Of a stretch of DNA of 64,000 bases, positions 35,932 to 37,683 are shown one piece after another (the stretch's first letter is position 1; each line of letters starts with the position of its first letter). This stretch comes from Candidatus Bathyarchaeota archaeon (GTDB taxonomy: Archaea > Thermoproteota > Bathyarchaeia > 40CM-2-53-6): contig CAVPLU010000004.1 in assembly GCA_963706285.1 (NCBI GenBank), positions 32,001-96,000 on the forward strand, in the 5' to 3' direction. A program made the position numbers and the translations under genes. The notes under the pieces were generated by a model. It was given only the letters and a program-made list of their open reading frames with translations, was not told where the DNA came from and did no database searches.

Positions 35932-37683
35932 CTATGTCTTTCGCTTGCGCAGCATAATCACAGCGCCGACGATTGCAAGGATGATGCCAACTCCGATTGC
36001 TCCGAGGGCCAATTGGATAGTTGCCGCTGGTGTTGCTCCAGTGTAGCCAAGCCCCGTAAGCGTAGAAGTGACAAGTGCCATGTTCGCGTCTCCGAGTGTC
36101 TTGTAAGCATCTTGGTGGAACGCCATTCCGTTAGGTATCATGCTGTATAGAGGCACTGCTTGTCCTAGGAAGACCGTGTCCACTACCTCTTGTCTGTTGA
36201 GTGCTGCCGCAATCGCCTGTCTGACTTCGGGTTTGTCGAATGGTGGAGTTCGTTCTTGGAAGCATATGTATTGGATGAAGGCGCCTGTGCCTTCCCAGAC
36301 CTTCAACGTTGAGTCTGACTGCATGTTCTTGATATCGCTTGAAGCTAGTTGTCTGAAGGCCATGTCAATATCGCCGGACTTTACCGCGAGGGCTAGTGCA
36401 GTCGAATCGCTGTAGAACTTGATGATGATGTGTTTGGATTTTACGTCCGCCGCGCTAAAGTAGCTCGGGTTTGCGTCGAGTTTCATCTCGTAGTCCTTTC
36501 CACCCTTTCGCGTCCAATCTGTCAACAGGTAAGGTCCTAGATCGTTGGGGTTGCTTGCGCGAGCGTTTCCGTCAGTGTACTGGACGGCTGTGCCTGGTGT
36601 GTTAGGGGCGTACTTCGGGTTCACGATATACGATCCAGAGAACGCCATCAGTGCTAGGAATGGTGAGAATTGATTCTTCAATGTGAAGACTGCTTGGTAC
36701 TTTGAGGCTGCCGTCACGCTTTTGATGATGTCTCCGTAGCCGAGTCCTACTTGTGGGCCGTCAGGCATTGCCAGTCCGATGTTTCTGTCGAAACTGTACT
36801 TGACCGCGTCCGCAGTGAACTCAGTTCCGTCAGAGAACTTTACGCCCTGTCTTAGGTCGAAGGTGTAGGTCAAGCCGTCAGAGCTAACCGACCACTTGGT
36901 CGCCAGCGCTGGCATGAAATCATTGGGGCCTGCAGCCGATCCAGGCTTGATATAAACGAGTGGAGCACCGAGGTTCACGATCATCTCGGATCCTCCGAAG
37001 AAGTCCCAAACCTCTGCTGGGTCAAGACTAGTTTCGACCGAGTCGGTTGTTCCCACAATCAGCGTATCCTTACCCGAAGGTGGACTGATGAGCCAGTAGT
37101 ACATGTTCTGGGTGATGTCTAGGTTCACGCCTGTAACGCCTGGTTTAGTCACAGCCCATGCTGAGCCTTGGAAGACGGGAACGATCGGTGCATCCTGCAC
37201 CATTATGGTTTGGATTTGAGAATAGAGTTGACCTCTCTGGGTTGCGTCAGAGGTTGACCGTGCTTGGGCAATGAGTTTGTCCATGTCTGGGTTGCTGTAT
37301 CCTGTTCCAAGCCAGCCACCGCCGACTGTGTCAAGGAATGGTTGGATATAGTCGTCGGGATCGAGGTAGTCAGGGTACCAACCATAAACATAGACTGGCA
37401 TACTGTGTGCGTCTCTGTTCGTCTTGTAACTTGCCCAGTCAGCGCCATGGAGGTTCACTGTTATCAGTCCTGTCTTCTCCATTTGTGACTTGTAGACTGC
37501 TGCTTGGTCCGCGCTTTGCGGGTAGTGTCCTGAAGATTCATACCACCAATCAATCGTGAGCTTCGGTGGGGGAAGCGTGTAGTAGTACGCTCCCACGCCA
37601 AGACTGGCGAGGCCAAGGAGCATTACGATGATTCCGATGCCTTGCATTCGCGCTATTGCTTTCTTGTTTAGTCCAAAAGTCAT
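35932..37683 (-). CDS. oppA: Family 5 (OppA/DppA) substrate-binding protein, circularly permuted, with N- and C-terminal membrane anchors
   Basis: Family-5 signature [29 protein letters not shown] lies mid-protein; the normally C-terminal [25 protein letters not shown] segment precedes it. Confidence 0.9.
   Translation of the reverse strand: [583 protein letters not shown]

Follow-up and report, generated by a model that had tools for sequence, protein, structure and literature searches.

We analysed a 64,000-nucleotide stretch of DNA (here called the window; positions 32,001 to 96,000 of contig CAVPLU010000004.1, assembly GCA_963706285.1) from a Candidatus Bathyarchaeia archaeon, in which an unbroken open reading frame (ORF) encodes a substrate-binding protein (SBP) of the OppA/DppA type, family 5, next to the genes of an OppBCDF-type importer. 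The two parts of this SBP lie in swapped order. The protein matches the PF00496 profile (SBP_bac_5) in two stretches (E 7e-74; 249.5 bits against a Pfam cut-off of 32.4), and comparison with P0063, a 561-aa canonical-order relative from the homologue search, divides it into two segments. By BLASTP, residues 205–548 (segment A) align with P0063 residues 51–395 at 75% identity, and residues 41–201 (segment B), which come first in the window protein, align with P0063 residues 399–559 at 77% identity. Each part of P0063 occurs exactly once, with none duplicated and none missing.

The same arrangement is evident against solved structures. Residues 241–517 of the window protein correspond to chain residues 37–313 of HbpA (3m8u) and residues 55–180 to chain residues 361–486, and this non-colinear match is repeated against structures 5u4o and 4qfk and against other cluster C proteins including DppA and OppA; in OppA (1b05), chain residues 358–508 are matched by residues 41–195. 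Domain colinearity along the chain fails for the profile, the solved structures and P0063, and no single colinear alignment to canonical SBPs was found. The chain is opened between P0063 residues 395 and 399, a three-residue loop stretch that is continuous in every solved structure matched, and three residues (aa 202–204) connect what used to be the C-terminus to what used to be the mature N-terminus. We refer to the order leader, segment B, bridge, segment A, C-terminal tail as type I (B-A1-A2). The initial annotation, made from the sequence alone, had described this layout correctly, with a leader followed by what is normally the last third of a family-5 SBP, a PPSGKD linker (residues 201–206, DNA 37066–37083), the usual N-terminal part, and a second hydrophobic stretch with RKRK (the C-terminal stretch ends in RKRKT). 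The leader motif is also found in canonical-order relatives such as P0096. Across 71 aligned permuted sequences, conservation of the bridge proline P202 reaches at least 90%, as it does for many positions in both segments, and the C-terminal part (aa 549–583) is a putative membrane anchor with its positive end inside.

Table 1. Features of the permuted SBP gene and the neighbouring importer genes (window coordinates)
Feature	Position	Strand	Basis and remarks
Permuted SBP gene, whole ORF	35932–37683	-	583 aa, unbroken; stop codon 35932–35934; PF00496, structure and P0063 alignments
Leader: basic N-terminus, hydrophobic leader/anchor, short Pro-rich linker (aa 1–40)	37564–37683	-	Best 19-residue Kyte-Doolittle window 2.03
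Segment B (aa 41–201), C-terminal third of canonical relatives	37081–37563	-	P0063 399–559; OppA 1b05 358–508
Bridge PSG (aa 202–204)	37072–37080	-	BLASTP against P0063; spanned by DNA contigs X1 record 3 and X4 record 20
Segment A (aa 205–548), N-terminal two thirds of canonical relatives	36040–37071	-	P0063 51–395
C-terminal part: short linker, hydrophobic helix, RKRKT tail (aa 549–583)	35935–36039	-	Kyte-Doolittle 2.75
oppB-type permease (BPD_transp_1_N + BPD_transp_1)	34754–35872	-	Pfam
oppC-type permease (BPD_transp_1)	33860–34753	-	Pfam
oppD-type ATPase (ABC_tran + oligo_HPY)	32891–33850	-	Pfam
oppF-type ATPase (ABC_tran + oligo_HPY)	31898–32884	-	Pfam

The oppB, oppC, oppD and oppF genes are intact and lie downstream of the permuted SBP gene on the same strand, in keeping with the earlier description of an unbroken frame and an intact oppBCDF set; BPD_transp_1 is found twice and ABC_tran plus oligo_HPY twice. 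The likely true start of the oppB-type gene is an ATG near 35785, judging by comparison with the permease of locus L058. A 367-aa ORF directly downstream of oppF (30361–31464, minus strand) gave no Pfam match at E 1e-5.

Inheritance of the swapped order

Segment B precedes segment A in 97 of the 120 best homologues, which come from many source assemblies, and the other 23 have the canonical order. Because both segment alignments are highly significant and so many of the best homologues share the order, chance can be excluded as the cause of the swap. A collection of species genomes yielded 49 loci, at six of which B lies before A and at 33 A before B, with ten having one segment only. All six B-before-A loci are titled Candidatus Bathyarchaeia or Bathyarchaeota and derive from metagenome-assembled genomes (MAGs) of other species; the 33 A-before-B loci include one from Bathyarchaeia, one from Thermofilaceae, one from Anaerolineae and many from bacteria. 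Close metagenome loci (n = 54) are permuted in 49 cases and canonical in two, and three are too short to classify. Among 61 related genomes, full-length colinear matches to the window protein occur in six of the ten genomes of its genus, counting its own, and in a single genome from a different family; canonical-order relatives occur in two genomes of the genus and in genomes of the sister genus.

The junction itself (∼37069–37083) is spanned by contigs from two DNA sequencing runs of different studies, X1 record 3 covering 36645–37163 and X4 record 20 covering 37003–37114. Two RNA libraries also yielded contigs that cover much of the gene. This hints weakly at transcription, but we do not claim expression, because the cover consists of contigs and DNA carry-over is possible; parts of the gene left uncovered in single sequencing runs carry no meaning. 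The ratio of nonsynonymous to synonymous substitution rates (dN/dS) is 0.059 in comparison with the 97%-identical L009, the one pair in which dS is unsaturated, and 0.05–0.12 in the other pairs for which it could be estimated, with similar values in segments A and B.

We considered whether the ORF is an artefact of assembly or binning, in which the 3′ portion of an SBP gene was joined to the 5′ portion of a different one in a chimeric contig. The source MAG does have an estimated contamination of 7.5%, and one relative, P0171, resembles a chimera (see below), but the identical order and conserved bridge recur in 97 of 120 homologues from many assemblies, six named MAGs of other species carry the same order, contigs of two DNA studies cross 37069–37083, and the frame is intact with a dN/dS of ∼0.06. 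We regard an artefact as refuted by the order in homologues, the genome and metagenome loci and the junction-crossing DNA contigs, and give it virtually no credence. The initial proposal of a natural circular permutation of a family-5 SBP thus gains the support of same-order homologues, of DNA contigs across the junction and of a reading frame under purifying selection, and sequence comparison confirms the window protein as a real, conserved permutation of this kind. The best joint explanation of the locus is that a predicted functional permuted family-5 SBP serves the adjacent OppBCDF-type importer in this archaeon, which we consider very probable.

The same genome (G000) contains a second type I paralogue (L002 1426–3124, equivalent to contig C9 ∼75975–77673), which is 61–73% identical, has no C-terminal anchor and is followed by no oppB-type gene. 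It is split over two frames near residue 440, either through a frameshift, making it a pseudogene, or through an assembly error. Elsewhere in the genome, two 342-aa ORFs (C6:22424–23452 and C7:3170–4198) have one difference in their first 40 residues and identical last 50 residues; either the gene has recently been duplicated or the bin, with its estimated contamination of 7.5%, is redundant at this point.

History of the permutation in the family

Trees were built from re-ordered, concatenated segments, using FastTree for 112 sequences and IQ-TREE for a set of 44; proteins with no near-full cover of any segment and proteins of 800 aa or more were excluded, and the IQ-TREE rows were picked after the FastTree trees had been seen. 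All permuted proteins of the window's group form one clade among canonical-order relatives, with a Shimodaira-Hasegawa-like approximate likelihood ratio (SH-aLRT) support of 100. Among its canonical neighbours, the one protein with a named source (archaeon RBG_16_50_20) and the one locus with a title (L015, Bathyarchaeia) are archaeal, and the leader motif is common to the permuted clade and the surrounding canonical relatives. The simplest history of the window's clade is one permutation within a canonical-order lineage.

Deep within this permuted clade, beside the permuted P0057 and P0058, nest four canonical-order proteins (P0063, P0067, P0069 and P0070; also loci L058 and L059), and the successive nested sets that hold them have support of 100, 97, 98 and 99 in the 44-sequence tree. 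P0063 and P0067 are 87–90% identical to P0057 and P0058 in segment A and 93–96% in segment B, as against 58–64% to other canonical relatives. An approximately unbiased (AU) test, for a group defined after the tree, rejects placing all canonical rows together (log-likelihood difference 133, p 1.9e-37). The canonical locus L058 and the permuted locus L107 agree in their upstream TBP-like gene and in their leader, and one and the same spacer separates the SBP stop codon from oppB in L058 and seven permuted loci. The canonical P0063 group therefore looks like a reversal of the permutation, at least once, inside the permuted clade; since the evidence of the locus (upstream gene, leader and spacer) agrees with the tree, the order appears to have changed back in place within the coding region. 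The spacer, ∼40 bases from the SBP stop codon to the oppB start, characterizes a tail-less subclade (L058 2937–2980, L060, L061, L062, L065, L067, L068 and L077) and has no match in the window with up to three mismatches allowed.

A second cut site was found in a sister genus. Two ORFs in that genus are each followed by an oppB-type gene. The first, L138 (604 aa), has the order of the window protein and is ∼35–38% identical to it. The second, L139 (589 aa), runs straight through the usual A-to-B connection, with residues 46–304 corresponding to residues 289–532 of the canonical P0103 and residues 311–589 to P0103 residues 31–287. We refer to this order, A2-B-A1, as type II; by alignment, the equivalent of its cut site in the window protein lies at about aa 455–459. 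The 120 nearest homologues of L139 comprise 52 of type II, 64 of type I and four partial sequences, with no canonical proteins. As an approximation from offsets in the DppA and OppA alignments and from hinge residues named for DppA of Mycobacterium tuberculosis (Mtb), the type II cut would lie near the hinge border and the type I cut within the C-lobe.

In a tree built without P0171, and with eleven near-identical rows taken out as well, the type II proteins group in a single clade (SH-aLRT 100) that lies inside type I, with P0300 apart. On this placement, type II looks like a further rotation of an already permuted chain. A re-emergence of type I inside the type II clade, indicated by an earlier tree, was rejected as a signal due to P0171. 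In this 616-aa protein the first and the last segment are both A2; the leading A2-B part shares 92% identity with type II proteins, and the A1 and A2 that follow share 80–81% with the type I protein P0300. It is a singleton chimera that may be a natural recombinant or an assembly artefact.

We then surveyed 150 representatives of the 50%-identity clusters nearest to the window protein. Canonical order is present in 100, type I in 12 (including P0030) and type II in seven (including P0144), the rest being fragments or multi-copy proteins, and these two cut sites are the only ones among the 150. P0030 represents the window protein's own cluster at 74% identity, and a feature search with it returned only archaeal family-5 clusters. 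For several permutants, identity to a canonical protein is well above that to any other permutant: P0328 (67% versus 40%), P0269 (63% versus 55%), P0322 (61% versus 38%), P0342 (61% versus 39%), P0389 (59% versus 39%), P0358 (57% versus 39%) and P0403 (55% versus 40%). By their source names, permuted forms come from Bathyarchaeia, Thermoplasmata, a Bifidobacteriaceae MAG and a Propionibacteriaceae MAG, the latter two carrying lipoprotein-type leaders. In a 48-row IQ-TREE, the starred branches force at least eight changes of label for type I and at least five for type II, and AU tests reject both a single clade for all type I rows (p 6.7e-5) and a union of the window's clade with the one other type I clade that is well sampled (p 2.7e-52). 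Both types thus appear to have several separate origins next to canonical sisters, with archaea and the two bacterial MAGs as their sources.

The label changes are direction-free, and one reversal is documented, so that the distribution might also reflect one ancient permutation with many of the canonical relatives being revertants. We consider this very unlikely, since 100 of the 150 representatives and all solved structures matched are canonical, permuted forms are tips beside canonical sisters at 55–67% identity, and many more reversals would be needed than the gains saved.

Anchoring of the chain ends

Seventy-nine permuted sequences, the window protein included, could be classified by script according to their anchors. 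A C-terminal transmembrane (TM) segment with three to four Lys or Arg in the last eight residues is present in 39, 38 terminate directly behind the final helix of segment A, and two are odd or truncated. Of the tail-bearing forms, 38 have an N-terminal hydrophobic segment, and in every one of these the N-terminal linker is 9–17 residues long by our own measure; in tail-less permuted forms it reaches up to 33 residues. The short linker of the tail-bearing forms fits two helices leaving one point, because the new N- and C-terminal ends adjoin in the canonical chain.

The permutation is not what produced the tail, since in three other lineages canonical sisters of permuted proteins already carry the same leader together with a C-terminal TM segment and basic tail (the pairs P0294/P0328, P0355/P0403 and P0333/P0342). 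Native termini can evidently also bear both leader and tail, and what changes is where the ends sit on the fold. The suggestion in the initial annotation that the permutation arose so that both ends could be tethered is not supported by these observations, given 38 of 79 permuted forms with no such anchor and three canonical sisters with both leader and tail.

It is also possible, though we think it unlikely, that the protein is not doubly anchored, the leader being cleaved by signal peptidase I or a PibD-type enzyme or the tail being removed by an archaeosortase-like enzyme, so that the mature protein would be held at one end only, or by lipid. Class III (PibD-processed) leaders occur on Sulfolobus sugar-binding proteins, and the window leader has the general class III shape, with a basic and a small residue before the hydrophobic stretch. 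The genome encodes a Peptidase_A24 homologue (39.9 bits), which is generic as a sign of class III leader processing, and an Exosortase_EpsH-family protein (26.7 bits against a cut-off of 25.7; C4:462205–462558). Other proteins of the genome have PGF-like and other shared CTERM-type tails, the tails of the independent permutants P0403 and P0342 score close to the cut-offs of the Loki-, Heimdall- and PGF-CTERM models, and 38 permuted relatives do without a C-terminal tail altogether. On the other side, the window tail has a TM helix and a basic cluster but no recognised sorting motif, with sub-threshold matches only (E 0.014 and 0.087), its best bit scores being 15.5 for LAVTG (cut-off 27) and 13.1 for GVDTG_CTERM (cut-off 29). 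It also lacks the motifs of the CTERM-like tails of its own genome, and the short linkers of tail-bearing forms fit two helices emerging from one point. Searches of NCBIfam gave neither an equivalog nor a valid CTERM model for the window protein.

The shared tails in the genome fall into two kinds. A common Gly-Gly-Phe...Asn-Lys-Leu motif precedes the TM helix and basic end in three ORFs (C3:33670–34488, C9:34843–35628 and C12:4620–5213), and PGF-like tails are present in two (C8:94643–95455 and C10:15822–16424). Together with the EpsH-family gene, these tails suggest that archaeosortase-type sorting operates in this organism.

Mechanism, fold and relation to known systems

A simple route to the permuted gene would start with an in-frame second copy of the mature body, leader and tail staying in place, and end with deletion of the outer parts that had become redundant. 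Such an origin, which we infer from the comparisons above, fits because the leader and tail are fixed, the junctions are in frame and the order has been reversed. The product would probably keep the normal two-lobed binding fold, and its chain ends, and hence its membrane tether or tethers, would be moved from the N-lobe to a loop of the C-lobe. One-chain tandem arrays of the family-5 domain exist (P0383, P0350, P0374, P0390 and P0344), and direct fusions of B to A are therefore viable.

Several points weigh against our overall account of the protein and its history. A search for fusions longer than 1021 aa turned up no duplicated intermediate, such as leader-A-B-A-B, in the neighbourhood of the window's clade, and no tandem second copy is present at the 49 genome loci or the 54 close metagenome loci. 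The sole intermediate-like protein, P0171, is a singleton chimera that may be an assembly artefact, and many of the 'independent' permutants are each represented by one sequence in one assembly. The rows of the 48-row tree and the groups of two AU tests were picked after the first tree had been seen, and the change counts carry no direction, so that one old permutation with many reversals is compatible with the topology alone. The type I paralogue on contig C9 of the same genome carries a frameshift. Finally, the conservation of the fold and the placement of the ends on the C-lobe depend on offsets and on alignment to solved structures.

The permutation could be a neutral by-product of frequent tandem duplication and recombination among family-5 paralogues, fixed by drift, with the cut sites marking tolerant loops; this is a real possibility, although on balance we doubt it. 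It agrees with the presence of both orders in near-identical proteins at the same locus and in the same operon, with the persistence of both tail-bearing and tail-less forms, and with the existence of one-chain tandem arrays. However, only two cut sites are used among the 150 representatives, and their apparent reuse by unrelated lineages speaks for constraint or selection. Moving the tether should also matter, since the solved DppABCD complex needs the N-terminal tether and its recognition by DppB for assembly (PMC10954201). A broader proposal, that family-5 SBPs are a hot spot of recurrent, reversible permutation at two preferred sites, a C-lobe loop (type I) and the hinge border (type II), driven by selection on the exit point of the tether or tethers and hence on docking to OppBC, is a tentative one that we think is more probably wrong than right. 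Were it true, the window's Bathyarchaeia clade, with canonical, permuted and re-reverted sisters at up to 95% identity and at one locus, would be a natural test system for the influence of tether position and hinge topology on delivery to an ABC importer.

Cluster C is the largest group of SBPs and among the most studied, with ligands that include peptides, nickel, haem, opines and, in thermophiles, oligosaccharides. The window protein shows clear homology over its whole mature length to its canonical members (DppA, OppA, NikA and HbpA; PF00496), and its operon provides the same partners, two BPD_transp_1 permeases and two ATPases with ABC_tran and oligo_HPY domains. It differs in that the chain is rotated, with the last third first and the native ends joined by three residues, and it does not reach NCBIfam equivalog thresholds (the best score is 121.7 bits against 1005 for DppA). 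Archaeal SBPs with unusual anchors, namely the PGF-CTERM-anchored ABC SBPs (TIGR04281) and the Sulfolobus class III SBPs, resemble it in having a basic N-terminus with a hydrophobic stretch and a C-terminal TM segment with a basic tail, although the window tail lacks the PGF-type motif of the former; within the literature searched, none of the known classes of this kind is permuted.

The literature searched likewise contained no permuted family-5 or cluster C SBP, in agreement with the initial annotation, which knew of none; it yielded engineered permutants, general papers and one natural case from cluster B, TpMglB-2 (Tp0684) of Treponema pallidum. Its authors present TpMglB-2 as the founding 'Type Ic / Cluster Bc' permuted ligand-binding protein, with a permuted part that can hardly be aligned to EcMglB (13% identity); they consider acquisition from another gene and raise a link between divergent topology and tethering (PMC4990184). 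On that description TpMglB-2 is, like the window protein, a natural permutation of a membrane-tethered binding protein of an ABC transporter, but it belongs to cluster B, has a Type I fold and has no sequence-level homology to the window protein, all of whose matches are to cluster C/family 5, so that membership of the MglB-like cluster B fails. The window protein is further distinguished by two parts each 75–77% identical to canonical relatives, by two cut sites in its family and by a reversal. The main text of a 2026 permutation survey, CIRPIN (PMC13552848), does not contain the terms 'periplasmic', 'solute' or 'ABC transporter'; its supplements might list the family. As far as the literature searched shows, what is new here is a permuted cluster C SBP with an apparent reversal, a second cut site and apparently several origins, a permuted SBP as such being known from TpMglB-2.

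Mtb DppABCD, the only solved cluster C complex (PMC10954201), offers a comparison for docking. It is likewise a membrane-tethered cluster C SBP with a DppBC/OppBC-type translocator; DppA rests on the translocator through its hinge and N-lobe, and assembly requires its N-terminal tether, which follows transmembrane helix 2 (TMH2) of DppB. Since the N-terminus of the window protein would, by alignment, leave the other lobe, DppA-like docking cannot simply be assumed for it, and a chain that starts and ends on that lobe poses a direct, testable docking question. Close unpermuted relatives are seldom available for a natural permutation, and the cases that have them offer the best material for learning how such rearrangements arise; here permuted and canonical forms up to 89–95% identical share a locus and a leader, providing a natural experiment in protein rewiring. 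The natural cut sites also mark likely tolerant places for engineered permutants and for sensor insertions.

Profile-based annotation labels these proteins plainly as 'ABC transporter substrate-binding protein', as their source names show, and sequential aligners cover ∼59–61% or 74% of permuted proteins when these are compared with differently ordered relatives. With cover this partial, trees and orthologue sets built with no re-ordering will be wrong for this family.

Longer chains in the family show further arrangements. P0344 (4308 aa), P0350, P0374, P0390 and P0383 are giant chains with several family-5 units in tandem; three of these proteins were seen in three to five members on separate contigs. 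P0270 (1036 aa), a singleton, has the order A1-A2-A1-A2-B-B, as if a whole SBP had been inserted at the type I cut site of another. The search above 1021 aa also recovered the canonical-order SBPs P0121–P0134, which are 46–56% identical and 1025–2059 aa long, two of them named Candidatus Bathyarchaeota archaeon. Most are fused to right-handed beta-helix/pectin-lyase-like domains (PF13229 and PF05048, some with PF01095 or PF00404), which hints that part of this SBP group handles polysaccharide products rather than peptides.

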